Shown piece by piece: positions 940-63,676 of a stretch of DNA of 64,000 nt (its first letter is position 1; every line of letters begins with the position of its first letter). The notes under the pieces are model-generated. The model saw nothing but the letters and a program-made list of their open reading frames with translations, searched no databases and was not told the DNA's origin. Source of the DNA: Spirochaetia bacterium (GTDB lineage: Bacteria; Spirochaetota; Spirochaetia; CADAEX01); contig OY759746.1 of NCBI GenBank assembly GCA_963662795.1, positions 2,016,001 to 2,080,000 of the forward strand, written 5' to 3'. The position numbers and the translations under genes were made by a program.

Positions 940-1232
940 GTCCGGCCTTGGCGTTGCCGTGCGGCCTGGACAAGAAGCGGCTGGTACTGGAGCATAACAG
1001 CGATTATTTCGCTGCGCTCCCGATGGTCGCTTGGGCTCCTGCCAGTTGAGCTGGCAGATCGCCATATTTTGTTTTCATAAAACTGGAAGAACATGTATTT
1101 TATGCTTTTTAAAGTTTAAAAAACTAAATAAAAGTATTTTAGAGTTTAGCCACAAAACATCGAATAATCGCGAGACGTTATCCACAATATCATCGCAAGA
1201 TGCGATCGCCCGGACCTCCGGCCCACGGGCGA
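940..1232 (+). repeat. Composite junction site S1 (arm class 10 | alpha core | arm class 1)
   Basis: Hairpin A, GCGGCTGGTACTGGAGCATAAC ... GTTATCCACAATATCATCG, hairpin B. Confidence 0.9.
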
Positions 1233-1293
1233 AGAGATTATTATTGCAAACAAAACAATTATACTTTTATAATAAAGAATAAAGGAAATAGAA

Positions 1294-2367
1294 ATGAATT
1301 ACAGTCCAAAGATTAAACTGATTTCAGATAAGAATGATTTAAATATAGTATCATTTATTGTTCTCATCCTTTCAGATATTTTTATAAGCATTATTTTATT
1401 TTATGGATTAAGCCAGCAAATTGAGCAGTTTACTGATGAATACAAGTATTTCCCGTATGAATACAGAAACATATTGATTGATAAAAACTGGGTAGAAAAC
1501 AATATAATTGAAAAGACAGCAGAGCATATACTATCAAGAAAAAGAGCTACCTATGAAAAAATAAATATTGAATATAAATTACATCCAAAATGTCAGGAAA
1601 TTGAAGATGTATTTAAAGAAATTGAAAATGACAATAATTTAGTACTTTCTCTAGAAGAATATGAAAGGCTGTCAAATAACTATTATACACTTAATAAAGC
1701 AGAAAAAGAATCTGAAGCAGGAGAAAGACTACAGGAGGAAATAGTTACTGCTGAGAAGCGGTTAAAAGAAGAACAAAAAATTAATAATCTTATTGAAACA
1801 GTTTTTAGGCTTCAGAAGTATGACTTTACGAAAGATATAATCAGATTCAGAAAAGTATTTGCTTTAAAAAGAACAATATTTGATTTTATTTTTCTCTTAC
1901 CTGTATTGGTTGGTTTTATATATTGGAACAGAAGAGCATTTAAAGCAGAATCATATATACAGGTAATTGTCAGCTCGCATTATATAATAGTTGCATTCTT
2001 ACCAATATTTTTTGAAATAATCCGCCTTGTAATTGAGGTTATTCCAAAAATATTATTGAAAACAATTTACGATTTTCTGCTAAAACTAAATTTAATAACA
2101 TTATGGTATTATGTAGTGCTCTTGCTCTCAGTATTTTTCATTATTTTTATTATATGGTTTTTACAGACAAAGATATTTACAAAAGAGAAATATAGTATAA
2201 AACAATATGAAAAGAGTAAATGCATTATTTGCAATACTCGAGTTGATTACTCAAATAATAATTGTCCGGCATGTGGAGCATTATTAAAAGTTAAATGCAA
2301 AAATTGTGGAAAGGAAACTATAAATAATCTTCCATACTGTATTAATTGCGGTAGTAAAAATATTTGA
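1294..2367 (+). CDS. Membrane protein with C-terminal double zinc ribbon (copy 1)
   Basis: About 4 hydrophobic segments; four CxxC motifs at the C-terminus. Confidence 0.75.
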   Translation: MNYSPKIKLISDKNDLNIVSFIVLILSDIFISIILFYGLSQQIEQFTDEYKYFPYEYRNILIDKNWVENNIIEKTAEHILSRKRATYEKINIEYKLHPKCQEIEDVFKEIENDNNLVLSLEEYERLSNNYYTLNKAEKESEAGERLQEEIVTAEKRLKEEQKINNLIETVFRLQKYDFTKDIIRFRKVFALKRTIFDFIFLLPVLVGFIYWNRRAFKAESYIQVIVSSHYIIVAFLPIFFEIIRLVIEVIPKILLKTIYDFLLKLNLITLWYYVVLLLSVFFIIFIIWFLQTKIFTKEKYSIKQYEKSKCIICNTRVDYSNNNCPACGALLKVKCKNCGKETINNLPYCINCGSKNI

Positions 2368-2393
2368 GAGAAACTGGGTGCCTTGAAAAAGAA

Positions 2394-2664
2394 GTCCGGC
2401 CTTGGCGGTGCCGTACGGCCTGGACAAGAAGCGATGATACTGGTGGATAACAGAGGATAATGCGCTTCGCTCCCTTTGGTCGCTTGGGCTTCGCCACACA
2501 TCGTAGGTTTTGAACTACAACATTTATAAACAACAAGTGTTGGGAGAAGAATATTGCAGCTTTGGTATATTCATTCTTGGGTTACGATGCGTCGCTTATC
2601 CTCGGGACGTTATCCACAATATCATCGCAAGATGAGATCGCCCGGACCTCCGGCCCACGGGCGA
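2394..2664 (+). repeat. Composite junction site S2 (1 | beta | 1)
   Basis: CGATGATACTGGTGGATAAC ... GTTATCCACAATATCATCG. Confidence 0.9.
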
Positions 2665-2725
2665 AGAGATTATTATTGCAAACAAAACAATTATACTTTT
2701 ATAATAAAGAATAAAGGAAATAGAA

Positions 2726-3799
2726 ATGAATTACAATCCAAAGATTAAACTGATTTCAGATAAGAATGATTTAAATATAGTATCATTTATTGTTCTCATC
2801 CTTTCAGACATTTTTATAAGCATTATTTTATTTTATGGATTAAGCCAGCAAATTGAGCAGTTTACTGATGAATACAAGTATTTCCCGTATGAATACAGAA
2901 ACATATTGATTGATAAAAACTGGGTAGAAAACAATATAATTGAAAAGACAGCAGAGCATATACTATCAAGAAAAAGAGCTACCTATGAAAAAATAAATAT
3001 TGAATATAAATTACATCCAAAATGTCAGGAAATTGAAGATGTACTTAAAGAAATTGAAAATGACAATAATTTAGTACTTTCTCTAGAAGAATATGAAAGG
3101 CTGTTAAATAACTATTATACACTTAATAAAGCAGAAAAAGAATCTGAAGCAGGAGAAAGACTACAGGAGGAAATAGTTACTGCTGAGAAGCGGTTAAAAG
3201 AAGAACAAAAAATTGATAACCTTATTGAAACAGTTTTTAGGCTTCAGAAGTATGACTTTACGAAAGATATAATCAGATTCAGAAAAGTATTTGCTTTAAA
3301 AAGAACAATATTTGATTTTGTTTTTCTCTTACCTGTATTGGTTGGTTTTATATATTGGAATAGAAGAGCATTTAAGACAGAATCATATATACAGGTAATT
3401 GTCAGCTCGCATTATATAATAGTTGCATTCTTACCAATATTTTTTGAAATAATCCGCCTTGTAATTGAGGTTATTCCAAAAATATTATTGAAAACAATTT
3501 ACGATTTTCTGCTAAAACTAAATTTAATAACATTATGGTATTATGTAGTGCTCTTGCTCTCAGTATTTTTCATTATTTTTATTATATGGTTTTTACAGAC
3601 AAAGATATTTACAAAAGAGAAATATAGTATAAAACAATATGAAAAGAGTAAATGCATTATTTGCAATACTCGAGTTGATTACTCAAATAATAATTGTCCG
3701 GCATGTGGAGCATTATTAAAAGTTAAATGCAAAAATTGTGGAAAGGAAACTATAAATAATCTTCCATACTGTATTAATTGCGGTAGTAAAAATATTTGA
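2726..3799 (+). CDS. Membrane protein with C-terminal double zinc ribbon (copy 2, tandem duplicate cassette)
   Basis: Near-identical to 1294-2367 with a few substitutions. Confidence 0.75.
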   Translation: MNYNPKIKLISDKNDLNIVSFIVLILSDIFISIILFYGLSQQIEQFTDEYKYFPYEYRNILIDKNWVENNIIEKTAEHILSRKRATYEKINIEYKLHPKCQEIEDVLKEIENDNNLVLSLEEYERLLNNYYTLNKAEKESEAGERLQEEIVTAEKRLKEEQKIDNLIETVFRLQKYDFTKDIIRFRKVFALKRTIFDFVFLLPVLVGFIYWNRRAFKTESYIQVIVSSHYIIVAFLPIFFEIIRLVIEVIPKILLKTIYDFLLKLNLITLWYYVVLLLSVFFIIFIIWFLQTKIFTKEKYSIKQYEKSKCIICNTRVDYSNNNCPACGALLKVKCKNCGKETINNLPYCINCGSKNI

Positions 3800-3825
3800 G
3801 AGAAACTGGGTGCCTTGAAAAAGAA

Positions 3826-4096
3826 GTCCGGCCTTGGCGGTGCCGTACGGCCTGGACAAGAAGCGATGATACTGGTGGATAACAGAGGATAATGCGCTTC
3901 GCTCCCTTTGGTCGCTTGGGCTTCGCCACACATCGTAGGTTTTGAACTACATTGTTTAGAAACAACAGGCTTTAAAAGAGACAAATTACAACTTTGGAAT
4001 ATTCATTCTTGGGCTACGATGCGTCGCTTATCCTCGGGACGTTATAAGCAATGTTCCCGCAAGAGGAAATCGCCCGGACCTCCGGCCGACGGGCGA
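3826..4096 (+). repeat. Composite junction site S3 (1 | beta | 2)
   Basis: Right arm GTTATAAGCAATGTTCCCG. Confidence 0.9.
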
Positions 4097-5444: not shown

Positions 5445-5491
5445 ACAGGAAATATATATAGGTATAGTGTAATTACCTAACAGTTTAAGAA

Positions 5492-5744
5492 GTCCAGCCT
5501 TGGCTCCGCCGAGCGGCTTGGACAAGAAGCGGGAACACTGCTTATAACAGCGAATGACCGGTTCCGGCTGTTTCTAAGGAAACAGCCTCCACTCAAATTG
5601 CCGAAATAATACATGTTAAGAATAATGGAATAGAGTATAAACTTTTGGAGTGAAAAACACCATCGGCAACTTCGGTCATTCGCGAGACGTTAGCAGCAAT
5701 ACGTCCCCAAGATGCAATCGCCCGGACCTCCGGCCCACGGGCGA
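5492..5744 (+). repeat. Composite junction site S4 (2 | gamma | 3)
   Basis: CGGGAACACTGCTTATAAC ... GTTAGCAGCAATACGTCCCC. Confidence 0.9.
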
Positions 5745-6630: not shown

Positions 6631-6689
6631 ATGTAATACTTTAAATATACAGATTATTAATAAAAATAAATTTACGAGTATTCCAAAAA

Positions 6690-6943
6690 GTCCGGCCTTG
6701 GCGGTGCCGTGCGGCCTGGACAAGAAGGGACGTACTGCTGCTAACAGCGAATGACCGGTTCCGGCTGTTTCTAAGGAAACAGCCTCCACCCAAATTGCCG
6801 AAATAATACATGTCAAGAATAATGGAATAGAGTATAAACTTTTGGAGTTAAAAAAACACCATCGGCAACTTCGGTCATTCGCGAGACGTTATATGCAATA
6901 CGACCCCAAGAGGACGCCGCCCGGACCTCCGGCCCACGGGCGA
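6690..6943 (+). repeat. Composite junction site S5 (3 | gamma | 4)
   Basis: GGGACGTACTGCTGCTAAC ... GTTATATGCAATACGACCCC. Confidence 0.9.
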
Positions 6944-7045: not shown

Positions 7046-8605
7046 ATGGTTAAAATCAATAAACTAATAATAGAAAATTTCAAAAAATTCCGTTATAGGC
7101 TTGATGTTGATTTTAACGATGAAATAAACATTTTTATCGGTGATAATGAATCTGGAAAAAGTACTATTTTAAAGGCTCTTGAATATGTTACAAGTGGAAA
7201 TAGATATAAAATAGAATCGGATGGTTTTGATAAGATAATAAATTTAGACTCTGTAAATGAATTTATGAAGTCCGAAAAAAAGTATAATGACTTACCAGTA
7301 GTATTTGTAGAAGTCTACCTAGATTCAAAAGATAATCCAGCCCTAAACGGCAAAAATAATCTTCTTAAAAAAGAATGTGATGGATTAAGACTAAAAATAT
7401 GTCCAGATGATGATTTGTCTAGTGCAATTAAATCTATTCTTGAAGAAAGTGATGGCATATTTCCATATGATTTTTATACTATCAAATTCAATACATTCCA
7501 AGGTGAAGGTTACACAGGTTACAAGAAGTATATTCAATCACTTTTAGTTGATAACAGTTTGATCGGTGATGAGACTGCAATAAAGCAGTATATAAAAGAT
7601 GTTTATTCTGGTTTTGTGTCTGAATCAGAGGATAATAGGAATGAAAGTAACTATAGAAAATTAAAGAAAAAATTCACAGATGACACATTAAGTGCTGTTA
7701 ATTCTAAAATTGAAGACTATTCTTTTGGTTTAAAACATGATCGAAAATCTAATTTGAAAACTGATTTATCAATATATGAAGATGAGATCAGCATAGATAA
7801 TAAAGGAAAAGGTCGCCAATGCTTCATAAAGACAGAATTTGCATTAATGAAAGATACTGGACATATAGATATTGTCCTTCTTGAAGAGCCAGAGAATCAT
7901 CTTAGTCACAATAATATGAATCTACTTATTGAAAAAATACTAATATCAAAATCAAGGCAATTATTTATTGCTACACATAGCAATGAAATCTGTTCTCGGC
8001 TGAACCTTCTGAATAGCCATCTAATAAATAGTAGTTCTGAAAAAACATTGAAGCTTAATAAAATAAATCCTGAAACTGCTGATTTTTTTATGAAAGCTCC
8101 AAATAATGATCTTCTAAGATATGTCACTTCAAATAAGGTAATTTTAGTTGAAGGAAACGCAGAATACATCCTTATGGATGAATTAGTGAAAATTGTTTCA
8201 GGAAAAACATCCAAAGAGAATGGATTCTCAATAATTTCTGTTGGAGGACTTAGTTTTAAAAGATATATGGAAATTGGAAATTATTTAAAAATAAAAACAG
8301 CAGTAATTAGAGATAATGATAGTGATTATAAAAAGCATTGTATAAATAATTATACCGATTCTGTTTCCAAAGAAACAAAAATTTTCTATACAACTGATAA
8401 TGATTTATATACTTTTGAAGTTTGTTTGTATAATGATAATAAAAAATTATGCAATGAGCTATTTAGTGCAGGCCGTAAATCATTATCAGTTAAAGAGTAT
8501 ATGTTACAAAACAAAGCTGAGTCAGCTTATCAATTACTCAAAAATGGTTCTATAATAAATGTCCCAGACTATATTTGCGCAGGAATAAAATGGATAATAG
8601 ACTGA
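7046..8605 (+). CDS. gajA: OLD-family ABC-ATPase/TOPRIM nuclease, Gabija GajA-like
   Basis: Walker A GDNESGKST, LLEEPENHL, TOPRIM ILVEG and RDND; directly upstream of a UvrD-like gene. Confidence 0.8.
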   Translation: MVKINKLIIENFKKFRYRLDVDFNDEINIFIGDNESGKSTILKALEYVTSGNRYKIESDGFDKIINLDSVNEFMKSEKKYNDLPVVFVEVYLDSKDNPALNGKNNLLKKECDGLRLKICPDDDLSSAIKSILEESDGIFPYDFYTIKFNTFQGEGYTGYKKYIQSLLVDNSLIGDETAIKQYIKDVYSGFVSESEDNRNESNYRKLKKKFTDDTLSAVNSKIEDYSFGLKHDRKSNLKTDLSIYEDEISIDNKGKGRQCFIKTEFALMKDTGHIDIVLLEEPENHLSHNNMNLLIEKILISKSRQLFIATHSNEICSRLNLLNSHLINSSSEKTLKLNKINPETADFFMKAPNNDLLRYVTSNKVILVEGNAEYILMDELVKIVSGKTSKENGFSIISVGGLSFKRYMEIGNYLKIKTAVIRDNDSDYKKHCINNYTDSVSKETKIFYTTDNDLYTFEVCLYNDNKKLCNELFSAGRKSLSVKEYMLQNKAESAYQLLKNGSIINVPDYICAGIKWIID

Positions 8606-9615
8606 TTCTTGCTGTCGCTGGAGCTGGAAAAACAACTTACATAATTAGAAAATTAACCCTTGAAAAAAGAGCCTTAATTATCACTTATACAAATAATAAT
8701 TTCGAAAATTTAAGAACATCGGTAATCGATAAATTTGGCTATATTCCACCCAATATTACAATTATGACTTATTTTTCTTTTATTCATTCATTTTGTTATT
8801 TACCTTATTTAAAAGATGAATGTAAAACAAATGGAATTTTCTTTAAGCCAAACATAAATCAATATGCGAAAGGACGATCTCGATACATTACAAATGGAGA
8901 CCGACTTTATTCTAATCGAATTTCTAAATTTATAATGGAAAAGGGAATTTTAAAAAATGTGATAGAAAGAATAGAAAGATATTTTGATTTACTATTTATT
9001 GATGAAATACAAGATTTTGCTGGAAATGATTTTAACTTTTTACTCAGTCTAAATACTTTGAAAATTCCTCAATTATATGTTGGTGACTTTTATCAGCATA
9101 CTTTTGATACGAGCAGAGATGGTATCGTAAATGGAACTCTTCATGATGATTTACAAAAATATAAAGAGTGGTATACAAAAATAGGATTTGATATTGACGA
9201 AGAAACATTATCAAGAAGCTATCGTTGCGGTCCTGTGATATGTGACTATATTTCAAGAAATTTAGGAATTAGCATAAAATCTCATAAACAAGATAAATCT
9301 TACATTAAGTTTACAAAAGATGAAGCAGATGTCAAAGAATTATTCTTAAACAATACTATTATAAAATTATTTTATCAGAAACATTATGCTTATAAAAAAT
9401 ATACAAGAAATTGGGGTGACTCAAAAGGAGAAAACCAGTATTTAGATATTTGTGTTGCATTGAATGATGGTACATATAAAAAATATTGCAGTTCTGAATT
9501 ACATAATTTACCAGAACAAACAAAAAATAAGTTATATGTTGCACTAACACGTGCAAATAGAAACGTATATATGGTTCCTGAGAAGGTTGTTAAAAAAATT
9601 GTGCAATCCAATTAG
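8590..9615 (+). CDS. gajB: Short UvrD-like helicase, Gabija GajB-like
   Basis: AVAGAGKTT, FIDEIQD, VGDFYQ, SYRC, LYVALTRA; overlaps the gajA stop. Confidence 0.8.
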   Translation: MDNRLILAVAGAGKTTYIIRKLTLEKRALIITYTNNNFENLRTSVIDKFGYIPPNITIMTYFSFIHSFCYLPYLKDECKTNGIFFKPNINQYAKGRSRYITNGDRLYSNRISKFIMEKGILKNVIERIERYFDLLFIDEIQDFAGNDFNFLLSLNTLKIPQLYVGDFYQHTFDTSRDGIVNGTLHDDLQKYKEWYTKIGFDIDEETLSRSYRCGPVICDYISRNLGISIKSHKQDKSYIKFTKDEADVKELFLNNTIIKLFYQKHYAYKKYTRNWGDSKGENQYLDICVALNDGTYKKYCSSELHNLPEQTKNKLYVALTRANRNVYMVPEKVVKKIVQSN

Positions 9616-10442: not shown

Positions 10443-10466
10443 TGGAATATTTAGAAAAGAGGAAAA

Positions 10467-10757
10467 GTCCGGCCTTGGCGGTGCCGTGCGGCCTGGACAA
10501 GAAGGGGTCGTACTGCATATAACAGCGATTATTTCGCTGCGCTCCCTGTGGTCGCTTGGGCTCCTGCCAGTTGAGCTGGCAGATCGCCATATTTTGTTTT
10601 CATAAAACCGGAACAACATGTGTTTTATACTCTTCAAGTTTGTAAAAACCAAATAAAAGTATTTTAGAGGTTAGTCACAAAACATCGAATAATCGCGAGA
10701 CGTTCTCCGAAATACCGCCCCAAGAAGAGATCGCCCGGACCTCCGGCCCACGGGCGG
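10467..10757 (+). repeat. Composite junction site S6 (4 | alpha | 5)
   Basis: GGGGTCGTACTGCATATAAC ... GTTCTCCGAAATACCGCCCC. Confidence 0.9.
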
Positions 10758-11500: not shown

Positions 11501-11550
11501 AATAAAATCTATCAAATAAGTAGCAAACATAGACAGTAACAGAAAAACGC

Positions 11551-11833
11551 CCAAGCCTTGGCGGTGCCGTGCGGCTTGGAAGAGAGGGGCGGTACTTCGG
11601 AGAACAGCGATTATTTCGCTGCACTCCCGATGGTCGCTTGGGCTCCTGCCAGTTGAACTGGCAGATCGCCATATTTTGTTTTCATAAAACCAGAACTGCA
11701 TGTATTTTATGTTTTTTATGTTTAAAAAACCAAATAAATGTATTTTTAGAGGTTAGCCACAAAACATCGAATAATCGCGAGACGTTATTTGAAATGCCCC
11801 GTAGGAAAATATATCGCGCCTTCCTGGCGCGAT
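11551..11833 (+). repeat. Composite junction site S7 (5 | alpha | 6)
   Basis: GGGGCGGTACTTCGGAGAAC ... GTTATTTGAAATGCCCCGTA; variant hairpins. Confidence 0.9.
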
Positions 11834-11878
11834 GGGAAATTCTAAAGACTAATGGAAATTAGTTAAAATGAAATGTAA

Positions 11879-12521: not shown

Positions 12522-12637
12522 AAAGACCTCTTATAATCTAGTATAGTAAGCTAGTAGCATAAAGTCAAGAAATATAGTAAAGAATAATTACAAGAGTAAA
12601 AACTTTTAATTTTGTAAGATATAGCGCTAAAGCAAGA

Positions 12638-12902
12638 AAGCCTATAGACGTCCTGTCTATAGGCTTAATACGGGGCACTTCAAATAACAGAGGATAATGC
12701 GCTACACTCGGAGTACCTCGCTTGGCCTGCGGCACACATCGTAGATATTAAGAATACAGCTTCTATAAACAACAAGTTTTTGAAAAAATATATTACAACT
12801 TTTAGGTATTCACACTTATCCTACGATGCGTCGCTTATCCTCGGGACGTTATATGCAATACGACCCCAAGAGAAATCGCCCGGACCTCCGGCCCACGGGC
12901 GA
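12638..12902 (+). repeat. Composite junction site S8 (6 | beta | 4)
   Basis: Hairpin AAGCCTATAGACGTCCTGTCTATAGGCTT; TACGGGGCACTTCAAATAAC. Confidence 0.9.
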
Positions 12903-12917
12903 AGAAAAGGTGATTTG

Positions 12918-12976
12918 CTGTATAATATCCTCTATATTTAAAATATATAGTTTTCTGGTTATTTAATATGTTAACT
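12918..12976 (+). promoter_or_regulatory. attI-like capture segment of carrier cassette 2
   Basis: CTGTATAAT...TTATTTAATAT|GTTAACT. Confidence 0.7.
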
Positions 12977-15168: not shown

Positions 15169-15196
15169 ATACTGGAATATTTAGAAAAGAGGAAAA

Positions 15197-15449
15197 GTCC
15201 GGCCTTGGCGGTGCCGTGCGGCCTGGACAAGAAGGGGTCGTACTGCATATAACAGCGAATGGCCGGTTCCGGCTGTTTCTAAGGAAGCAGCCTCCACCCA
15301 AATTGCCGAAATAATTCATGTTAAGAATAATGGAATAGAGTATAAACTTTTAAAGTGAAAAACACCATCGGCAACTTCGGTCATTCGCGGGACGTTATCC
15401 ACAATACCCCCACAAGAAGCGATCGCCCGGACCTCCGGCCGACGGGCGA
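15197..15449 (+). repeat. Composite junction site S9 (4 | gamma | 7)
   Basis: Same architecture as the other sites. Confidence 0.9.
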
Positions 15450-16163: not shown

Positions 16164-16205
16164 CAAATGTTCAATTTTTTAATCCATTAATTTTTGAAAA
16201 AGCTA

Positions 16206-16477
16206 GTCCGGCCTTGGCTCCGCCGTACGGCCTGGACAAGAAGTGGGGGCACTGTTGGATAACAGAGGATAATTCGCTGCGCTCGGAATACCTCGCTTGG
16301 CCTGCGGCATATTTTGCTATCAATAAAACAGTTCATATTATATTTTTACTCTCTTTAAATATATTTCCCAAGACTATTATGTTAAAAAAGGTTTTAGCAA
16401 AACATCGCTTATCCTCAGGACGTTATCCACAATGCCCCCACAAGATGCGATCGCCCGGACCTCCGGCCGACGGGCGA
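16206..16477 (+). repeat. Composite junction site S10 (7 | beta variant | 7)
   Basis: Same architecture. Confidence 0.9.
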
Positions 16478-17158: not shown

Positions 17159-17203
17159 ACCGATAATTTGTACTAGTAGAATAATTACCTGACAATAGAA
17201 GAA

Positions 17204-17475
17204 GTCCAGCCTTGGCTCCGCCGTACGGCCTGGACAAGAAGTGGGGGCACTGGTGGATAACAGAGGATACTGCGCTACGCTCGGAGTACCTCGCTTGGCC
17301 TTCGGCACACATCACAGGTTTTAAATTACTGCTTTTAGAATTAACAAGTTTTCAAAAGAAAGATATATAATATTTGTCTTTTTATTCATTGGCTGTGATT
17401 CGTCGCGTATCCTCAAAACGTTATCCACAATGCCCCCACAAGAGAAAATCGCCCGGGCCTCCGGCCGACGGGCGA
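17204..17475 (+). repeat. Composite junction site S11 (7 | beta | 7)
   Basis: TGGGGGCACTGGTGGATAAC ... GTTATCCACAATGCCCCCA. Confidence 0.9.
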
Positions 17476-18233: not shown

Positions 18234-18506
18234 GTCCGGCCTTGGCTTCCAGCCGTGCGACCTGGACAAGAAGTGGGGGCCCTGGTGGATAACAGAGGAT
18301 AAAGCGCTTCGCTCGGAGTACCTCGCTTGACCTTCGGCACACATCGTAGGGTTTAAACTACCTCTTTAAGAAATACTTAGTTTTGGAAGAAAAATATTAC
18401 AACTTTGAAATAATAATTCTTGAGCTACGATGCGTCGCTTATCCTCGGGACGTTCTCCGAAATACCGCCCCAAGAGGAGACGCCCGGACCTCCGGCCCAC
18501 GGGCGA
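18234..18506 (+). repeat. Composite junction site S12 (7 | beta | 5)
   Basis: Same architecture. Confidence 0.9.
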
Positions 18507-18779
18507 GGAAATATAGGCAAAGAAATAATATTTGATATTTTCCCTATAGCATATTCTGAACAACCAAAAGATTGTATTTTGAGAATATTTATTTGGATTT
18601 AAATAAAATTAATAAAAAAAGATCGAATTCTGGATATTTTAAGGATTTTGTCGTGTGATATTATTCCGAAAGAAATGTTTAATAAGTGTTTTAAAAAAGT
18701 AATATTACGAATTAAAAAACCTTGTAGATTTGGTATTTAAAGTGTATACTATGAAGTGTATACTAAAAGAGGTAGAATT

Positions 18780-19399: not shown

Positions 19400-19405
19400 A
19401 AAGCC

Positions 19406-19666
19406 CCAAGCCTTGGCGGTGCCGTGCGGCTTGGAAGAAGGGGCGGTACTTCCGAGAACAGCGGTTAAAGCGCTACGCTCGCAGTAGCTCGCTTGGGCTC
19501 CTGCCTGTGCGCAGGCAGTTCACCAAAAAAACACGAGTTACTCCAAGCTATAAATTAAAGAAAGTAAACATACAATGCAAATAGATTAATGTGTTTTCTT
19601 CGCTTAACCGCGGGACGTTATTTGAAATGCCCCGTAGGAAAATATATCGCGCCGTCCTGGCGCGAT
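19406..19666 (+). repeat. Composite junction site S13 (5 | delta | 6)
   Basis: Same architecture. Confidence 0.9.
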
Positions 19667-19711
19667 GGGAAATTCTAAAGACTAATGGAAATTAGTTAAA
19701 ATGAAATGTAA

Positions 19712-20354: not shown

Positions 20355-20470
20355 ATCGTCCTCTTATAATCTAGTATAGTAAGCTAGTAGCATAAAGTCA
20401 AGAAATATAGTAAAGAATAATTACAAGAGTAAAAACTTTTAATTTTGTAAGATATAGCGCTAAAGCAAGA

Positions 20471-20733
20471 AAGCCTATAGACGTCCTGTCTATAGGCTTA
20501 ATACGGGGCACTTCAAATAACAGAGGATAAAGCGCTACGCTCCCTTTGGTCGCTTGGGCTTCGCCACACATCGTAGGGTTTTTACTACAACATCTAAAAA
20601 CAACAAGTTTTGGAAGAAAATATTGCAACTTTGAAAATATCATTCTTATCCTACGATGCGTCGCTTATCCTCGGGACGTTATATGCAATACGACCCCAAG
20701 AGAAAATCGCCCGGACCTCCGGCCCACGGGCGA
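20471..20733 (+). repeat. Composite junction site S14 (6 | beta | 4)
   Basis: Same architecture. Confidence 0.9.
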
Positions 20734-24980: not shown

Positions 24981-24993
24981 ATATAAATGAAGA

Positions 24994-43156: not shown

Positions 43157-43567
43157 ATGATTTACCATATAGTACCGGAAAAAGAGTATTTGAAATTAGC
43201 TGCAAAAGAGAAATATATCCCAAATAATTTCAATGATTTCGGATTTGTACATTGTGCTTTTAAAGTTTCGGTTTTATCAGTTGCAGATGACTATTATTCA
43301 AAAGTAAAGGATAAGCTTATTCTTTTGAAAATAAACCCTGAGAAATTAAAGTCAGATGTAAAATATGAGGAAGCAACTCCGGAAGAAGGTTTAGGTAAAG
43401 AGCATTTAAATACTTCAAATGTTTTTCCACACGTATATGGGCCAGTAGATAATGATGCAGTTGAAGGAGTAGGCGAATTGGGGAAGAAAGAGGGAAAATA
43501 TAGCTGGCCAGTTAAATTCATTCCTTTTGCAGAATATTTGGAAACAAATAAGAAGATAAAAGATTAG
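43157..43567 (+). CDS. DUF952-like protein
   Basis: MIYHI, GFVHC, FPHVYGP. Confidence 0.8.
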   Translation: MIYHIVPEKEYLKLAAKEKYIPNNFNDFGFVHCAFKVSVLSVADDYYSKVKDKLILLKINPEKLKSDVKYEEATPEEGLGKEHLNTSNVFPHVYGPVDNDAVEGVGELGKKEGKYSWPVKFIPFAEYLETNKKIKD

Positions 43568-43858
43568 TCCGGCCTTGGCATTGCCGTGCGGCCTGGACAA
43601 GAAGCGATGATACTGGTGGATAACAGCGATTATTTCGCTGCGCTCCCTGTGGTCGCTTGGGCTCCTGCCAGTTGAGCTGGCAGATCGCCATATTTTGTTT
43701 TCATAAAATCGGAATGACATGTGTTTTATGCTCTTCAAGTTTGTAAAAACCAAATAAAAGTATTTTAGAGTTTAGTCACAAAACATCGAATAATCGCGAG
43801 ACGTTCTCCGAAATACCGCCCCAAGAGAACATCGCCCGGACCTCCGGCCAACGGGCGA
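43567..43858 (+). repeat. Composite junction site S26 (1 | alpha | 5)
   Basis: Same architecture. Confidence 0.9.
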
Positions 43859-45075: not shown

Positions 45076-45099
45076 GTTTTATAGAAAGAAATATTTTTA

Positions 45100-45370
45100 G
45101 TCCGGCCTTGGCGTTGCCGTGCGGCCTGGACAAGAAGCGATGATACTGGTGGATAACAGAGGATAAAGCGCTACGCTCGGAGTACCTCGCTTGGCCTGCG
45201 GCACACATCGTAGATTTTGAACACAACTTCTATAAGCAGCCAGTTTTAGAAGATAAATACTGCAACTTTGTAATATTCAATCTTAGACTACGATGCGTCG
45301 CTTATCCTCGGGACGTTATCCACAATATCATCGCAAGAGAACGCCGCCCGGACCTCCGGCCAACGGGCGA
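45100..45370 (+). repeat. Composite junction site S27 (1 | beta | 1)
   Basis: Left arm does not match the S26 right arm. Confidence 0.9.
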
Positions 45371-45385
45371 AGAAAATAGAATCTT

Positions 45386-45443
45386 CTGTATAATATACTT
45401 TATTCATAACATATATTGTTTCTAGTTATTTAATATGTTAGAT
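45386..45443 (+). promoter_or_regulatory. attI-like capture segment of carrier cassette 5
   Basis: CTGTATAATATACT...TTCTAGTTATTTAATAT|GTTAGAT. Confidence 0.7.
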
Positions 45444-46694: not shown

Positions 46695-46949
46695 GTCCGG
46701 CCTTGGCGTTGCCGTGCGGCCCTGGACAAGAAGCGATGATACTGGTGGATAACAGCGAATGACCGGTTCCGGCTGTTTCTAAGGAAACAGCCTCCACCTA
46801 AATTGCCGAAATAATACATGTTAAGAATAATGGAAAAGAGTATAAACTTTTGGAGTGAAAACACCATCGGCAACTTCGGTCATTCGCGGGACGTTAGCAG
46901 CAATACGTCCCCAAGAAGACAATCGCCCGGACCTCCGGCCGACGGGCGA
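46695..46949 (+). repeat. Composite junction site S28 (1 | gamma | 3)
   Basis: Same architecture. Confidence 0.9.
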
Positions 46950-48441: not shown

Positions 48442-48480
48442 AAAACATTGTAATTTAATTATTTCCTATTAATATAAAAA

Positions 48481-48752
48481 GTCCAGCCTTGGCTCCGCCG
48501 TGCGGCCTGGACAAGAAGGGGACGTACAGCTGCTAACAGAGGATAATTCGCTTCGCTCGGAGTACCTCGCTTGGCCTGCGGCACACATCGCAGGTTTCGA
48601 ACTACAACTTATATAAGCAACAAGTTTTTGAAAAATAAATACTGCAATTTTGAAATATTTATACTTTGGATGCGATGCGTCGCTTATCCTCGGGACGTTA
48701 TAAGCAATGTTCCCGCAAGAGAACATCGCCCGGACCTCCGGCCGACGGGCGA
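48481..48752 (+). repeat. Composite junction site S29 (3 | beta | 2)
   Basis: Same architecture. Confidence 0.9.
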
Positions 48753-48767
48753 GGAAAAGTTGATCTG

Positions 48768-48826
48768 CTGAATAATAACCTATATTCATAAAATATATAG
48801 TTTTCTGATTATTTAATATATTATGC
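48768..48826 (+). promoter_or_regulatory. attI-like capture segment of carrier cassette 6 (GTT changed to ATT)
   Basis: CTGAATAATA...TTTCTGATTATTTAATAT|ATTATGC. Confidence 0.6.
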
Positions 48827-49723: not shown

Positions 49724-49907
49724 ATATATGCAATTAATATTCTTTATATTTTTAAAGAGGCAATTAACCAGGCAGCTTGAGGCGATGTTAAATGCACGGA
49801 AATATTCAGTTTTAGAATAACGATGGTTGTGTTAGAATGTATGAGAATAATAAAAATGTCTTATATTCTCGGGACGTTAAACGTAAGATAAAAAATATGG
49901 AACAAAA

Positions 49908-50827: not shown

Positions 50828-51083
50828 GTCCGGCCTTGGCTTCCAGCCGTGCGGCCTGGACAAGAAACGGGAACACAGCTTATAACAGCGAATGACCGGT
50901 TCCGGCTGTTTCTAAGGAAACAGCCTCCACCCAAATTGCCGAAATAATACATGTTAAGAATAATGGAATAGAGTATAAACTTTTGGAGTGAAAAACACCA
51001 TCGGCAACTTCGGTCATTCGCGAGACGTTATGCTCAATACCAGCCGCAAGAGAAAGCCGCCCGGACCTCCGGCCCACGGGCGA
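50828..51083 (+). repeat. Composite junction site S30 (2 | gamma | 10)
   Basis: Same architecture. Confidence 0.9.
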
Positions 51084-52003: not shown

Positions 52004-52259
52004 GTCCGGCCTTGGCTGTGCCGTGCGGCCTGGACAAGAAGCGGCTGGTACTGGAGCATAACAGCGAATGACCGGTTCTGGCTGTTTCTAAGGAAACAGC
52101 CTCCACCCAAATTGCCGAAATAATACATGTTAAGAATAATGGAATAGAGTATAAACTTTTGAAATGAAAAACGCCATCGGCAACTTCGGTCATTCGCGGG
52201 ACGTTATCGGCAATGGCTGGGCGAAGAAAACACCGCCCGGACCTCCGGCCAACGGGCGA
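52004..52259 (+). repeat. Composite junction site S31 (10 | gamma | 11)
   Basis: Same architecture. Confidence 0.9.
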
Positions 52260-53317: not shown

Positions 53318-53343
53318 CTTAAAATAAAAAAGAATTGAGGACA

Positions 53344-53590
53344 GTCCGGCCTTGGCGTTGCCGTGCGGCCTGGACAAGACGCCCAGCCACAGCCGATAAC
53401 AGCGAATGGCCGGTTCCGGCTGTTTCTAAGGAAGCAGCCTCCACCCAAATTGCCGAAATAATAAATGTTAAGAATAATGGAATAGAGTATAAACTTTTGA
53501 AGTGAAAGACACCATCGGCAACTTCGGTCATTCGCGGGACGTTATTTGAAATGCCCCGTAGGAAAATATATCGCGCCGTCCTGGCGCGAT
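53344..53590 (+). repeat. Composite junction site S32 (11 | gamma | 6)
   Basis: Same architecture. Confidence 0.9.
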
Positions 53591-53635
53591 GGGAAATATT
53601 TAAGAATAATGTTAATTGGGAAAAGGAAAAGGCAT

Positions 53636-54278: not shown

Positions 54279-54400
54279 AAAGACCTCTTATAGACTAGTA
54301 TAGTAAACCAGTATTAAGAAGTCAATGAATATGTTGAAGAAAATTAGTAATTAAAGAAGTAGAAATATTTAATTTTGTAAGATATAGCGCTAAAGCAAGA

Positions 54401-54663
54401 AAGCCTATAGACGTCCTGTCTATAGGCTTAATACGGGGCACTTCAAATAACAGAGGATAATTCGCTGCGCTCGGTTTCCCTCGCTTGGCCTGCGGCACAC
54501 ATCGTAGGGTTTGAACCACAACTTCAATGAACAACCATTTTTGGGGAAAATAATACAACTTTTAGATTTTCATGGTTATTCTACGATGCGTCGCTTATCC
54601 TCAGGACGTTCTCCGAAATACCGCCCCAAGAAGAGATCGCCCGGACCTCCGGCCAACGGGCGA
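54401..54663 (+). repeat. Composite junction site S33 (6 | beta | 5)
   Basis: Same architecture. Confidence 0.9.
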
Positions 54664-55874: not shown

Positions 55875-55915
55875 TTATCAGAAAGTTATTTTAATAAAAA
55901 TATTAAATAATTAAT

Positions 55916-56205
55916 CCAAGCCTTGGCGTTGCCGTGCGGCTTGGAAGAGAGGGGCGGTACTTCGGAGAACAGCGATTATTTCGCTGCGCTCCCTATGGTA
56001 GCTTGGGCTCCTGCCAGTCGAACCGGCAGATCGCCATATTTTGTTTTCATAAAACCAGAACTGCATGTATTTTATGCTTTTTAATTTTAAAAAAATTAAA
56101 AAAATGTATTTTTAAAGTTTAGCCGCAAAACATCGAATAATCGCGAGACGTTATCCACAATATCATCGCAAGAAAGCGCCGCCCGGACCTCCGGCCAACG
56201 GGCGA
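55916..56205 (+). repeat. Composite junction site S34 (5 | alpha | 1)
   Basis: Same architecture. Confidence 0.9.
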
Positions 56206-56220
56206 AGAAAGTAGAATCTG

Positions 56221-56279
56221 CTGTATAATATACTTTATACATAACATATATAGTATACTAGTTATTTAATATGTTATGC
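56221..56279 (+). promoter_or_regulatory. attI-like capture segment of carrier cassette 7
   Basis: CTGTATAATATACT...CTAGTTATTTAATAT|GTTATGC. Confidence 0.7.
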
Positions 56280-58701: not shown

Positions 58702-60457
58702 GAGGCTGTAGATAAAGTGTAAATTTTCAACAATTGCTTTATATCCAGATATTCCCATGATAAAATTCTATCAGACTGGGAGATTACAAAATGGGTAAAT
58801 ACAAAGAGTATTCTTATGAACAAAAAGTGCTGCTGCCGATAGATTTTTCCGAGCAGGTTCTTCCCGGAACCTTTGAACACACACTCAATTTTCTCATTGA
58901 CCGGGAAATTGATTTAACCATGTTTTATGAAAAACATAAAAATGATGAAAATGGAGCTCCCGCCTACGATCCGGCGATCTTACTGAAGATAATTCTTTTT
59001 GCTTATTCACGGGGAATTATTTCCAGCAGAAGAATTGCCCGATTATGTCGGGAAAATGTCGTTTGCATGTCCCTCTCCGCAGATACCCGGCCGCACTTTA
59101 GCACCATAGCTGATTTTATTTCTACGATGGATAAAGAAATCGCTCCCCTGTTTACCCGGATTCTCTCGGTCTGTTACGCCAATAACGTCATCGATAAAAA
59201 CATGTTTGCCATCGACGGCTGCAAGATTTCTTCCAATTGCTCAAAGGAATGGAGCGGAACGAAAAAAGAACTGCTAAAAAAAGCGGGAAAGATAGAGGAA
59301 TCTATCAAATACCTGTTGGAAAAACATAAACAGGAAGATAAAAGCCGGTATAGTCAAAGTCAGGAAGAGAAAGAAAAGGCTTCGATAGAGAAACTGAAAG
59401 CTAAATCCCAAAAGATCCATGACTGACTGAACTCAAATGACGATAGAATGGGAAGCCAGGGGAAACCAATAAAAAGCAATATTACCGACAATGAAAGCGC
59501 GAAGATGTCCACCTCCCATGGAGTTATCCAGGGTTATAACGGAATTGCGGCGGTTGATGAAAAGAACCAATTAATCGTTTGGGCGGAAGCATTTGGCGAC
59601 AGCAATGAATCCAAACATTTCCCCGAGATTCTGGATGGAATAAAAAACAATTTTAAATCGATTCAGGCATCGGAAGATATCTTGAAAGAAACAGTGATTA
59701 CCGCCGACAGCGGTTTTCATAATGATAATAATATGAAGCTGATTGTGGAAAATAACCTGACAGCCTTTGTCGCGGACAACCAGTTTCGAAAGAGGGATGT
59801 GAGATTTGCATCAGCCCAGAAACATAAACAAAAACCTGTCACGAATTGGGAACCTGCCAAAGGGAAAAAATATTACTCAGTAGATGATTTTATCTATGAT
59901 GAAAATACAAAGAAATTAATGTGCCCAGCTGGTTTCGAAATGAAACTGAAGTGCAGGAACTTTCAAAGCTCTGGCTATAGTGGAACATCCTACATAGGGA
60001 GAAAGGAAAACTGCTTAACCTGTCCGCTAAGAAAGAAGTGTATACGTAAAGAGAGCACGGAAGTCAGACAGGTGACCAGGTTTGATAGTAGTCGGGGAAA
60101 AGAAAAGGTCTCATTTACAGAACGAATGAGGAGAGTCTTTGACGCGCCTGAAGGTCGGAGTATCTACAGTAAAAGAATGGGTACTGTAGAACCGGTGTTT
60201 GGAAATATCCGATCGACACTGGGGTTAAATTATTTTACACTGCGAAGTAAGAATAAGGTAAATGTTCAATGGTTGCTTTTCTGTATTGTGCATAACATTG
60301 GAAAAATACAGAGGTATGCGGAAGCATAGGGGAAAATAGAGGATGAAATGAATCAGGGATTACATTTTGACCTCACAAGACAATCTTATGGACTTTATGA
60401 TCTTGTAGAATGGGAGAAGTAAATGAAGATTGAAAATCGGGGTTTTTCTACAGCCTC
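58702..60457 (+). mobile_element. IS1182-family insertion sequence
   Basis: TIR GAGGCTGTAGA / TCTACAGCCTC, flanked by GTT on both sides. Confidence 0.85.
58791..60329 (+). pseudogene. IS1182-family transposase with in-frame TGA at 59424-59426
   Basis: PAYDP..LLKI..FAY, AIDG.K, TD.ES, ADSGF, Y.KR...VEPVFG; the two ORFs share one frame. Confidence 0.85.
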
Positions 60458-61954: not shown

Positions 61955-62200
61955 GTCCGGCCTTGGCGTTGCCGTGCGGCCCTGGACAAGAAGCGATGAT
62001 ACTGGTGGATAACAGCGGTTAAAGCGCTGCACTCGGAGTACCTCGCTTGGGCTTCGCCATAAAGGCGCGAACAAATACAGGTTAGGTCTAGAGTAATCAA
62101 TAAAACTTGTTTATTTTAAAGCAAGTGCGCCTTCATCGCTTAACCGCGGGACGTTAGTAGCAATACCCCGCCAAGAGAGAAGCGTGCCGTCCTGGCACGC
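61955..62200 (+). repeat. Composite junction site S35 (1 | delta | 12)
   Basis: Right arm GTTAGTAGCAATACCCCGCC; variant hairpin B. Confidence 0.9.
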
Positions 62201-62246
62201 AAGAATACAAATATAATTATTTTTAACTAATAAGAGAGAAAGAAAA

Positions 62247-62747
62247 ATGAAAACATTAAATGATTATGTATCAGAGTACAAAAAGCAAATGGAGAAGAGT
62301 GATATTCAAAAAGCCTATAGAGGAATCATTGATTACATGATGAGCCTTAGAACATATTTTGAAAAAAATTATAGTGATTATTTTGTTTCCGGAAGCCTTT
62401 ACAATGGTTATATGGATATGACTTATTTCTCTCTTACACCAGCATTTTTAAAAGAAAAAAAATTAAAAATAGCTATAGTTTTTATACATGAGAATATAAG
62501 TTTTGAAGTTTGGCTTTCAGGATACAATAAAAGCATACAGAAAAAGTATTGGAAGTATTTTAAAGAAAGGAAATGGAATAAATATCTTATACCAGATGAT
62601 ATAAATGGAAAAGATTCAATAATTGAATACATTATTGAAGATAAACCTAATTTCGATAATTTAAACTTTTTAACACGAAAAATAGAGAAAGAAGTCCTCA
62701 TATTTATTAAGGATATAATAAAATTGTTAGAAAAAGAAACTGAATAG
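62247..62747 (+). CDS. Conserved-looking hypothetical protein
   Basis: 166-aa ORF, GYMDMTYF...FEVWL.G.N. Confidence 0.7.
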   Translation: MKTLNDYVSEYKKQMEKSDIQKAYRGIIDYMMSLRTYFEKNYSDYFVSGSLYNGYMDMTYFSLTPAFLKEKKLKIAIVFIHENISFEVWLSGYNKSIQKKYWKYFKERKWNKYLIPDDINGKDSIIEYIIEDKPNFDNLNFLTRKIEKEVLIFIKDIIKLLEKETE

Positions 62748-62802
62748 AAAACTTGATTAATAGTATAAACATAGTATATACTATTAATCAAGGATGATTT
62801 AT

Positions 62803-63039
62803 ATGGAAACTGTAATTAAGAAATGGGGTAATAGCCTGGGAGTAAGAATACCAAGTCTTATGGCTAAAGATTTATCTTTAAAAGACGGCTCATTTGTAGA
62901 AATTGAAGAAGAAGGGGATAAAATAGTCATAAAACAAAAGAAAAAGACTAATTTAAATGAAATGCTAAGGAGCATTGATATTAATAATCTTCATGGCGAA
63001 ATAGATACAAATAGTCCGGTAGGAAATGAAATATGGTAA
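62803..63039 (+). CDS. mazE: MazE/AbrB antitoxin
   Basis: IKKWGNSLGVRIP. Confidence 0.9.
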   Translation: METVIKKWGNSLGVRIPSLMAKDLSLKDGSFVEIEEEGDKIVIKQKKKTNLNEMLRSIDINNLHGEIDTNSPVGNEIW

Positions 63040-63374
63040 AGAAGGTCTATATTCCTGAAAGGGGAGATATAATCTGGTTAGATTTTACACCGCAATCAGG
63101 CCATGAACAGATGGGGAAAAGACCTGCAATTGTAGTTTCCCCAAAAGAATATAATGAAAAAGTAGGACTAGGACTATTTTGTCCCATAACAAGTAAAGAA
63201 AAAGGTTATCCATTTGAAGTGAAGATAGAAAATAAGAAAATAGATGGAGTTATATTATCAGATCAGCTTAAAAGTCTTGATTGGAAGAGCCGAAATGCAG
63301 AGTTTATAGTAAAAGCAAAAAAAGAAGAAATAAATGAAGTTATAGAAAAAATCAGTGTATTGATATTTGTATAA
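63033..63374 (+). CDS. mazF: MazF/PemK endoribonuclease toxin
   Basis: PERGDIIWLDF.PQSGHEQ...RPA. Confidence 0.92.
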   Translation: MVKKVYIPERGDIIWLDFTPQSGHEQMGKRPAIVVSPKEYNEKVGLGLFCPITSKEKGYPFEVKIENKKIDGVILSDQLKSLDWKSRNAEFIVKAKKEEINEVIEKISVLIFV

Positions 63375-63390
63375 AAACCCCAGAAAAAGA

Positions 63391-63676
63391 AACCAAGCTG
63401 CCGTCCATGGCATCTTGGTTAAGGCGGGGTACTGCTACTAACAGCGATTATTTCGCTGCGCGCCCGATGGTCGCTTGGGCTCCTGCCAGTTGAGCTGGCA
63501 GATCGCCATATTTTGTTTTCATAAAACCTGAACGATATATGTTTTATGCTTTTTATGTTTGAAAAACCAAATAAATGTATTTTTAGAGTTTAGCCACAAA
63601 ACATCGAATAATCGCGAAACGTTATCCACAATGCCCCCACAAGAGAAAATCGCCCGGACCTCCGGCCGACGGGCGA
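63391..63676 (+). repeat. Composite junction site S36 (12 | alpha | 7)
   Basis: GGCGGGGTACTGCTACTAAC ... GTTATCCACAATGCCCCCA. Confidence 0.9.

Follow-up and report, generated by a model that had tools for sequence, protein, structure and literature searches.

The 64,000-nucleotide (nt) window analysed here covers positions 2,016,001 to 2,080,000 of contig OY759746.1, the only contig of the Spirochaetia bacterium genome GCA_963662795.1 (3.93 Mb, 39.7% G+C). Its genes are divided into small blocks by co-oriented junctions, and this raises the question of what kind of system assembled them and which enzyme moves them. An earlier note on this DNA read the junctions as the sites of an integron-related but distinct cassette system. 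This view is upheld by cassette bounds at AAC and GTT triplets, a covarying fold, an attI-like junction next to a tyrosine recombinase, and a cargo of toxin-antitoxin (TA) and defence genes. The locus is probably a sedentary chromosomal integron-like cassette platform, run by an Xer/IntI-related recombinase that lacks the insertion specific to integron integrases (IntI) and acts on a folded single strand. Below, the source genome is labelled G000 and its contig C1, G002-G028 are genomes of relatives (40 relatives are compared beside G000), and L numbers are loci of recombinase relatives.

The window is the middle of a longer array that spans G000 1,847,948-2,180,706 (approximately 333 kb, or 8% of the chromosome) and has 31% G+C. 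The right end of the sites, described by the regular expression C[GA][GA][GA]ACGTT, matches 187 times in the array (1,849,044-2,180,706, all on the plus strand). The left motif is present at the right distance for 184 of these matches, which places the number of co-oriented sites at 184-187. There are 36 right-end matches in the window, 35 of them with a left AACAG motif 142-182 nt upstream. A structure-only detector (AAC, 0-2 nt, a 9-nt half-stem, its complement with at most one mismatch, 4-6 nt that end in AC, and GTT) has 172 matches in the array, against only four on the plus strand and six on the minus strand of the remaining 3.9-Mb genome. The motif of hairpin B occurs 151 times on the plus strand genome-wide and never on the minus strand, always within 1,850,165-2,180,021. 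A repeat search of the window returns many interleaved families at the positions named in the earlier note, and an Rfam scan of the window has no match at gathering score. The distal end of the array is truncated because its final arm, past the GTT at 2,180,706, is cut by an insertion sequence (IS)-type transposase gene. In this stretch (G000:C1:2,180,116-2,180,725), the gene of the last cassette enters directly a core fragment that has neither AAC nor left arm.

Each composite site contains, in order, hairpin A, an AAGAAG linker, an arm, AAC, the core, GTT, a second arm, a CAAGA linker and hairpin B (Table 1). This layout, as first proposed, is read in the sequence of the window, where alternative hairpins replace the standard ones in approximately 8 of the 35 full sites. 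All 35 have both ends, and the 36th junction of the earlier note is probably a truncated one at approximately 34.5-34.7 kb. The arms are approximately 17 nt long on each side of the core in G000. The cores are 145-185 nt long including AAC and GTT, in line with the length first given for them; AAC-to-GTT distances are 142-182 nt and fall into three classes of approximately 143, 160 and 181 nt between triplet starts. In general, attC sites are 57-141 bp long. The G000 cores lie outside this range, and relatives also have short forms of 71-84 nt. The order of elements typical of attC is present in 172 of 172 array sites found by the structure-only detector: AAC, 1 nt, a 9-nt stem half, its complement, 5 nt and GTT. 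The strongly asymmetric spacer of 1 nt opposite 5 nt, described earlier for the window, is thus a constant feature of these sites.

The sites could also be non-mobile intergenic repeats of a terminator or insulator type, or resembling repetitive extragenic palindromes (REP), bacterial interspersed mosaic elements (BIME) or miniature inverted-repeat transposable elements (MITE), that spread in a region of tandem duplication without cassette recombination. They are GC-rich hairpins in AT-rich intergenic DNA, some alternative hairpins are terminator-like for reverse-oriented genes, and no excision product is observed in contigs. This explanation is nevertheless very improbable. Dispersed repeats of the REP/BIME or MITE kind have copies in both orientations across the chromosome, whereas these sites are confined to a single strand of one 333-kb locus. 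The number of terminator-like sites (12) shows no enrichment over shuffles (8.0 +/- 2.5). A non-mobile origin is also at odds with features described below: arm complementarity that spans each gene block, near-identical cassettes in unrelated contexts with breakpoints exactly at the triplets, a recombinase and attI-like junction at the array head, and cores and arms common to another genus.

The arms pair at the level of the cassette and not of the site. With pairing defined as at least 15 of 18 positions and a 1-nt bulge allowed, 168 of 183 cassettes have a right arm (from site i-1) that pairs with their left arm (from site i). The two arms of the same site pair in 50 of 184, and random arm combinations in 10%. 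An outward stem of about 12 bp had been placed within each site; the pairing stands, but its location moves to the cassette ends. Arm pairing survives complete sequence turnover, since 71 distinct arm combinations keep their complementarity. Cassette-level pairing means that arms and flanking hairpins move together with the genes, in agreement with cassettes that form circles and recombine at AAC/GTT. The arms share a common design. Six variable pairs lie by the triplet, followed by AAT on the right facing ACT on the left (with or without an extra G) and then by approximately eight GC-rich pairs. The facing AAT and ACT give an A-T pair, a conserved A.C mismatch and a T-A pair, and AAT occupies positions 7-9 in 175 of 187 right ends.

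Folds computed with DNA energy parameters favour the circle form of the site, which exceeds the array form in stability by a mean of 8.7 kcal/mol (by more than 3 kcal/mol in 131 of 183). The proximal arm is paired in the minimum free energy (MFE) structure of 173 of the 183 circle-form sites. In the 160 class, 12 of 24 predicted pairs of the inner stem have compensatory changes on both sides. Inner-stem sequences differ among the three core classes.

There are 64 pairs of paralogous cassette bodies, dispersed over the array, in which the arms are kept (mean 16.7 and 17.2 of 18 positions). Breakpoints were read from the 25 pairs with at least 95% identity. Upstream, identity ends 2-12 nt before GTT in 24 of the 25 pairs and 25 nt before it in one. 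The earlier note had held that breakpoints never falling at G/TT (the slash marks the junction) would speak against a cassette system; identity in fact ends by the upstream GTT in all but one pair. Downstream, identity runs through the whole core to GTT in 16 pairs, which share the core, and ends 2-9 nt past AAC in the other nine, seven or eight of which switch core class. The cassette boundary at G/TT, with the chimeric sites that it gives, is that of integrons, and the 7-9 pairs with a break at AAC have an additional one. The arm of the core-swapped pair c47/c102 is absent from every other cassette. For this pair, homologous recombination between shared flanks is therefore rejected as the sole cause of the core swap; for the others it is possible. 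Sequence comparison thus gives GTT and AAC as two breakpoints of a site-specific kind, and the core as exchangeable in its own right. Breakpoints at both triplets suggest that both strands, or both sides of the stem, may be usable by the recombinase. In classical integrons, efficient recombination is described for the bottom strand only (PMC13108822, in part).

Breakpoints at AAC and GTT are also expected if the two ends of the core are both cleaved by an Xer-like enzyme that acts on duplex DNA or an extruded cruciform, with two conventional strand exchanges at inverted AYT-N6-AAC half-sites. The same motif does occur on opposite strands at both junctions (ACT-N6/7-AAC and GTT-N6-AAT, with the right-end AAT as widespread as given above), and the enzyme is without the I2 region. 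However, arms and inner stems vary in sequence yet stay complementary, a property that duplex recognition does not select. The 1/5-nt bulge, invariant in the array, exists only in the folded strand, and in duplex DNA the half-sites are 143-181 bp apart. Recombination of this type is improbable here.

The recombinase at the array head is a 339-aa protein encoded on the plus strand at G000 1,846,782-1,847,801, outside the window and directly upstream of the first junction. The 294-aa recombinase in the window is its paralogue. The head recombinase matches Pfam Phage_integrase with 138.5 bits. For the IntI model TIGR02249 (cut-off 265 bits), the head and in-window proteins score 200.1 and 158.4 bits, in two stretches each that skip the middle of the model, where the insertion lies. 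The head protein is also below the XerC and XerD cut-offs (TIGR02224, 175.4 against 335 bits; TIGR02225, 173.2 against 330 bits). The best family for both is archaeal-type XerA (NF040815; named 'site-specific tyrosine recombinase/integron integrase' in NCBIfam), with 214.5 bits for the head and 217.2 bits for the in-window protein, just under the cut-off of 220. The best PDB matches of the head recombinase are VchIntIA (2a3v, 132.5 bits) and Pyrococcus abyssi XerA (4a8e, 131.3 bits). At the IntI-specific insertion (I2 helix, near patch III) it has 24 residues where VchIntIA (IntI4) has 66, approximately 42 fewer. In an alignment of eight proteins, the catalytic R, K, H, R, H and Y columns are invariant. 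An insertion of approximately 45 residues is present only in the two intact canonical spirochaete IntIs and absent from all four array-linked proteins. The lack of the IntI insertion, first noticed in the in-window paralogue, therefore extends to the head enzyme.

In a tree of 38 proteins (longer ones trimmed to their last 300 residues), the array-linked enzymes and canonical IntIs fall together, apart from the two housekeeping Xer proteins of the genome (support 100/99). The IntI clade (100/100) branches among the array-linked enzymes on a weakly supported backbone (80/81 or open). A third, shortened copy of the in-window recombinase is located at G000:C1:1,881,700-1,882,580 (L114; open frame of 228-233 aa). 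It follows a decayed left half-core, the same context as that of the in-window gene, and the two are sisters in the tree (100/100). The head recombinase also has an N-terminal extension of approximately 45-70 residues with the motif G-DGK-I-V/I-K-x-PY ... W-x(4)-K-V-W. This extension (L004:1294-1500, L116:1252-1400) is common to a canonical IntI of G022 and absent from short array-head enzymes.

An attI-like junction, GGA/GTT, lies 147 bp after the stop codon of the head recombinase and is the start of the array (GTT at 1,847,948). Next come an arm whose complement is the left arm of the first full site, a hairpin with a GTCCT loop, vapB-vapC, a second GTCCT-loop hairpin and the first AAC. The locus L009, whose recombinase is 79% identical, has the same head layout with a different distal arm; its hairpin stem has compensatory changes and the GTCCT loop is conserved.

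The array could instead be an ordinary sedentary integron, or a cluster of attC sites lacking integron-integrases (CALIN), with long attC sites recombined in trans by a canonical IntI, now or formerly, and the head Xer-like gene a bystander or in another role. Common to these sites and attC are AAC/GTT, the inner stem, the spacer that stays unpaired and the variable loop. A canonical intI elsewhere in the genome had been named earlier as something that might explain the sites, and one is present (412,089-413,302), the only one in G000. However, it is a pseudogene 1.43 Mb from the array. Its first half retains the IntI match in one frame (175.8 bits) and its second half, with two TGA and one TAG stops, in another (195.7 bits); the insertion is preserved. 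IS3- and IS30-like genes lie on its two sides, and neither a relaxed detector nor a direct-repeat search finds an array in the 20 kb examined beside it. Among the 41 genomes, nine have IntI matches over the cut-off, including the array-bearing G005, G008, G011 and G028. Intact canonical IntIs are encoded at G011:C1:2,825,426-2,826,364 and G005:C1:1,046,544-1,047,479 (open frames of 413-424 aa). With a relaxed detector and a direct-repeat search, no array is found within 20 kb on either side of these two genes, which therefore have no obvious substrate of their own. The arrays of G011 and G005 adjoin insertion-less recombinases elsewhere in the same genomes. G002 and G007, which have arrays or sites and are 95% and 92% complete, have no TIGR02249 match at E <= 1e-40. 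None of five array-bearing Flavobacterium genomes has an IntI match over the cut-off; their best TIGR02249 matches are the array-head recombinases themselves, in two stretches. The recurrence of an Xer-like gene at the array head by an attI-like junction, in several genera and two phyla, also argues against a canonical IntI in trans, which is unlikely to be the acting enzyme.

The association between insertion-less recombinases and arrays extends to other genomes. Relatives of the head recombinase occur in Spirochaetia metagenome-assembled genomes (79% and 54% identity) and in many Bacteroidota (38-47%). Across 80 loci of relatives, 74 sites lie downstream of the recombinase on its own strand (379 kb) and two on the other strand, while five and three, respectively, lie upstream (552 kb in all). 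Of the 42 loci with at least 3 kb downstream, 12 have at least two sites and 19 have at least one. A pattern search over the 40 relatives, which is too specific to G000-type sites to gauge array presence, finds clusters only in G011, G005, G008 and G002. Arrays lie beside homologues in G005, G007 (L010), G008, G011, G020 and G028. The G011 recombinase is 46% identical and co-oriented with at least 14 sites of 71-183 nt, and some of its cores and arms are nearly identical to those of the window although the genus is different. In G005, G008 and G028 the recombinases are 36-39% identical and 267-289 aa long, and the arrays are divergently oriented. The proximal six arm positions are fully paired at the cassette level in 29 of 41 cases in Bacteroidota and 14 of 30 in other spirochaete genera, against 3 of 50 and 2 of 37 within the same site. 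At least 47 of 50 Bacteroidota sites, and all 37 sites of other spirochaete genera, have the A in the middle of the right-arm triplet. The Bacteroidota homologues are mostly 575-608 aa long (L026:9083-10825 and approximately 50 other loci), and their N-terminal extension of approximately 300 residues has no Pfam match.

In the proposed mechanism, the cassette is the unit formed by TT, right arm, CAAGA, hairpin B, one to three genes, hairpin A, AAGAAG, left arm, AAC, core and G. Excision as a circle would bring the two arms together, so that the folded-back core is extended by 6 bp, the A.C mismatch and approximately 8 GC-rich bp. This would give a single long, imperfectly paired hairpin between hairpins A and B. 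The candidate enzyme is the 339-aa head recombinase, presumably active at present, and the 294-aa paralogue is possibly a second copy. It would recognise the folded strand by its shape, namely the AAC/GTT pair, the 1/5-nt bulge, the inner 11-bp stem and the A.C mismatch. One strand would be exchanged at the triplet and the junction resolved by replication, the course taken by integrons and by XerCD when it integrates CTX-phage. Crossovers would fall mostly at GTT and also at AAC if either strand or stem side can be cleaved. Because AAC would also serve as a crossover point, the core would be a separately exchangeable module. The chemistry would not need the IntI insertion, given the precedent of phage single-stranded DNA integration by Xer: recombinases without the I2 helix exchange one pair of strands on a folded phage hairpin, and replication resolves the product (CTX-phi and other integrative mobile elements exploiting Xer, IMEX; as described in part of PMC3442271). 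These elements differ in that they use host XerC/XerD and dif, and are phage genomes, not cassettes, with no arrays and no dedicated recombinase.

Several observations weigh against a platform run by the insertion-less recombinase. The intact canonical IntIs of G005, G008, G011 and G028 could act in trans in this lineage. Of the 42 recombinase-relative loci that extend 3 kb or more downstream, 23 have no site by the strict detector. The 5-nt bulge leaves AAC paired with GTT in the MFE folds of just 37 of the 183 circle-form sites. The I2 helix is held, in the part of PMC7790495 concerned with it, to have made single-strand recombination possible. No excision product is found in metagenome contigs, which stop at every site, where the two sides of a joint have 21-30 letters in repeats. 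The cassette order rests on one single-contig assembly. The metagenome contigs cover single cassette bodies. In run X4, which has another organism label and comes from another study, contigs match the 440-aa cassette gene at 28,319-29,641 of the window in short segments, each with 1-3 differences, a result that would fit cassette sharing and is not decisive. Contigs of run X5 give no coverage.

Hairpins A and B are confined to genera g1 and g4. The alternative hairpins at cassette ends have unrelated stems and N-TCC-N-T loops (GTCCT, ATCCAT, GTCCAT). As the same loops recur in the arrays of genus g4 and in L009, a reader specific for the loop sequence is suggested. Two functions were considered and rejected. 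The 70-residue N-terminal extension of the head recombinase does not use hairpins A and B as arm-type sites, because the G005 and G008 arrays, with short enzymes of 267-289 aa, have the hairpins and L010, with the extension, has none. They are not ordinary intrinsic terminators, on the count against shuffles given above. Standard hairpins are without a T tract, and only the alternative hairpins of reverse-oriented cassettes are terminator-like. Hairpins A and B are possibly cassette-borne insulators, terminators or sites for an accessory protein.

The cassettes hold one to three genes, and the first encodes VapB/VapC. The cargo includes PIN/VapC, Phd, MazE and RES proteins, a Gabija-like pair, SIR2 with HerA, AbiH and an ApeA-type HEPN protein, as well as a Shedu-like nuclease, T5orf172, UDG-like and PLD proteins, and others. 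TA and defence cargo is also that of sedentary integrons in the portion of the Darracq et al. preprint on cargo. At least six unrelated cassettes share a segment just past hairpin B that contains CTGTATAAT, with an extended -10-like box. Because of this box, some cassettes may carry their own promoter. A DDE transposase of 385 aa (DDE_Tnp_1 + DUF4372) is present in three copies with identical Pfam scores, two of them in tandem. Cumulative GC skew places the origin near 1.38 Mb and the terminus near 3.42 Mb, so that the strand complementary to the cassettes is the leading-strand template. Natural sedentary integrons have the same orientation to replication in the account given in part of PMC13108822.

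Table 1. Sites and other features, in window positions unless marked G000. Site classes are approximate distances (nt) between the starts of AAC and GTT.
Feature	Position	Strand	Details
Composite site	940-1232	+	AAC 996, GTT 1177; 181 class
Composite site	2393-2664	+	AAC 2449, GTT 2609; 160 class
Composite site	3825-4096	+	AAC 3881, GTT 4041; 160 class
Composite site	5490-5744	+	AAC 5546, GTT 5689; 143 class
Composite site	6687-6943	+	AAC 6743, GTT 6888; 143 class
Composite site	10465-10757	+	AAC 10521, GTT 10702; 181 class
Composite site	11547-11839	+	AAC 11603, GTT 11784; 181 class; variant hairpin A, alternative hairpin B with TCC loop
Composite site	12630-12903	+	AAC 12686, GTT 12848; 160 class; alternative hairpin A, GTCCT loop
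Composite site	15195-15449	+	AAC 15251, GTT 15394; 143 class
Composite site	16205-16477	+	AAC 16261, GTT 16422; 160 class
Composite site	17203-17475	+	AAC 17259, GTT 17420; 160 class
Composite site	18235-18507	+	AAC 18291, GTT 18452; 160 class
Composite site	19401-19672	+	AAC 19457, GTT 19617; 160 class; alternative hairpin B
Composite site	20463-20733	+	AAC 20519, GTT 20678; 160 class; alternative hairpin A
Composite site	22685-22939	+	AAC 22741, GTT 22884; 143 class
Composite site	24988-25243	+	AAC 25044, GTT 25188; 143 class; alternative hairpins, ATCCAT loop in B
Composite site	28007-28279	+	AAC 28063, GTT 28224; 160 class; alternative hairpin A, ATCCAT loop
Composite site	29709-29978	+	AAC 29765, GTT 29923; 160 class
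Composite site	31947-32220	+	AAC 32003, GTT 32165; 160 class
Composite site	33415-33688	+	AAC 33471, GTT 33633; 160 class
Truncated junction abutting recombinase gene	34497-34700	+	Degenerate hairpin A, AAGAAG, arm, degenerate AAAC, left half of 181-type core; right half absent
Tyrosine recombinase paralogue, 294 aa	34713-35597	-	No IntI insertion; catalytic residues present; reverse to array
Composite site	35777-36048	+	AAC 35833, GTT 35993; 160 class
Composite site	36849-37120	+	AAC 36905, GTT 37065; 160 class
Composite site	40612-40885	+	AAC 40668, GTT 40830; 160 class
Composite site	41995-42287	+	AAC 42051, GTT 42232; 181 class
Composite site	43566-43858	+	AAC 43622, GTT 43803; 181 class
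Composite site	45099-45370	+	AAC 45155, GTT 45315; 160 class
Composite site	46695-46948	+	AAC 46751, GTT 46893; 143 class
Composite site	48479-48752	+	AAC 48535, GTT 48697; 160 class
Possible 12-nt right-end relic (TCTCGGGACGTTA) between two open reading frames	49866-49880	+	Right-end match at 49,876; without core, arms or hairpins
Composite site	50828-51082	+	AAC 50884, GTT 51027; 143 class
Composite site	52004-52258	+	AAC 52060, GTT 52203; 143 class
Composite site	53342-53596	+	AAC 53398, GTT 53541; 143 class; alternative hairpin B
Composite site	54393-54663	+	AAC 54449, GTT 54608; 160 class; alternative hairpin A
Composite site	55912-56205	+	AAC 55968, GTT 56150; 181 class; variant hairpin A
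Composite site	61955-62208	+	AAC 62011, GTT 62153; 143-length, different core sequence; alternative hairpin B
Composite site	63384-63676	+	AAC 63440, GTT 63621; 181 class; alternative hairpin A
Alternative hairpins with N-TCC-N-T loop	11,813-11,833; 12,638-12,666; 25,215-25,235; 28,090-28,112; G000 1,848,010-1,848,030		Loop form
Defence cassette	7,046-9,615		Gabija-like pair (AAA_15/OLD-TOPRIM + UvrD-like helicase)
Defence cassette	20,822-22,531		ApeA N-terminal domain + HEPN
Defence cassette	25,228-28,014		SIR2_2 + HerA
Defence cassette	32,278-33,375		AbiH
Shared CTGTATAAT segment	6,943-6,980; 12,902-12,939; 29,979-30,016; 45,370-45,407; 48,752-48,789; 56,205-56,242		
DDE transposase, 385 aa	37,292-38,449	+	
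DDE transposase, 385 aa	38,677-39,834	+	
DDE transposase, 385 aa	56,727-57,884	-	
DDE_Tnp_1_6 transposase gene	59,448-60,329		

The locus shares its general plan with sedentary chromosomal integrons such as the Vibrio cholerae superintegron. The points in common are one co-oriented array of promoter-poor cassettes with one to three genes, folded imperfect AAC...GTT palindromes (inner paired box, spacer left unpaired, variable loop), chimeric sites with a G/TT crossover, an attI-like junction by a tyrosine recombinase, TA and anti-phage cargo, and the same replication orientation. Unlike them, the G000 platform has a recombinase without the IntI insertion and under the TIGR02249 cut-off, a spacer of 1 versus 5 nt, cores of 145-185 nt, two extra hairpins per cassette, pairing that runs approximately 15-17 bp past the triplets with a conserved A.C mismatch, and a second breakpoint at AAC through which cores are exchanged. 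The V. cholerae array is approximately 126 kb long with approximately 180 cassettes, in contrast to approximately 333 kb here. Integron logic is thus shared, while the enzyme subgroup, the site design, the second crossover point and the exceptional array size differ.

The Treponema 'inverted-integrase' integrons (Wu, Doak and Ye 2013, PMC3607928) are similar in their spirochaete host and in some long attC sites. The portion of that paper on these integrons describes a canonical IntI, attC sites of 63-132 bp and typical R and L boxes, which differ from the insertion-less head recombinase and remote intI pseudogene found here. In the section of Cury et al. 2016 (PMC4889954) that treats them, insertion-less recombinases next to attC sites are few, each with fewer than three sites, and are judged not to be IntI. 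The present array, in contrast, has approximately 184 sites, and the association is seen repeatedly in different genera and phyla. With no intI_Cterm in the neighbouring recombinase, a CALIN is the most that IntegronFinder would report for this array. Bacteroidota are reported as almost integron-free in passages of the IntegronFinder 2.0 and Darracq et al. preprints, the former giving one complete integron (Salinibacter) for Bacteroidetes beyond In0 elements. No published description of cassette arrays run by insertion-less recombinases was found in full texts, supplementary tables aside.

A broader combination of these points is tentative, with somewhat less than an even chance of holding as a whole. 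Insertion-less IntI relatives would be genuine hairpin recombinases across Spirochaetota and Bacteroidota, and the I2 domain would be unnecessary for cassette capture. Either strand or side would be cut in this array, making cassette bodies and cores two independently shuffled modules, and the pair of TCC-loop hairpins would be accessory or insulator sites. The array would rank with the largest known banks of cassettes, stocked for the most part with TA and anti-phage genes.

The definition of integrons and the searches for them rest on the IntI-specific domain and one attC model. If the interpretation given here is true, there would be a second widespread branch of cassette platforms, with insertion-less recombinases, and current surveys would undercount gene-capture systems. 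The idea that single-strand recombination arose through the I2 helix, as put forward in the relevant part of PMC7790495, would need revision or would gain a testable ancestor-like state. The 183 cassettes, with their many arm types, would form a natural mutational data set on the features that the enzyme reads, namely the triplets, the A.C mismatch and the 1/5 bulge. Defence and TA genes would also be shown to be banked in large numbers outside Proteobacteria.

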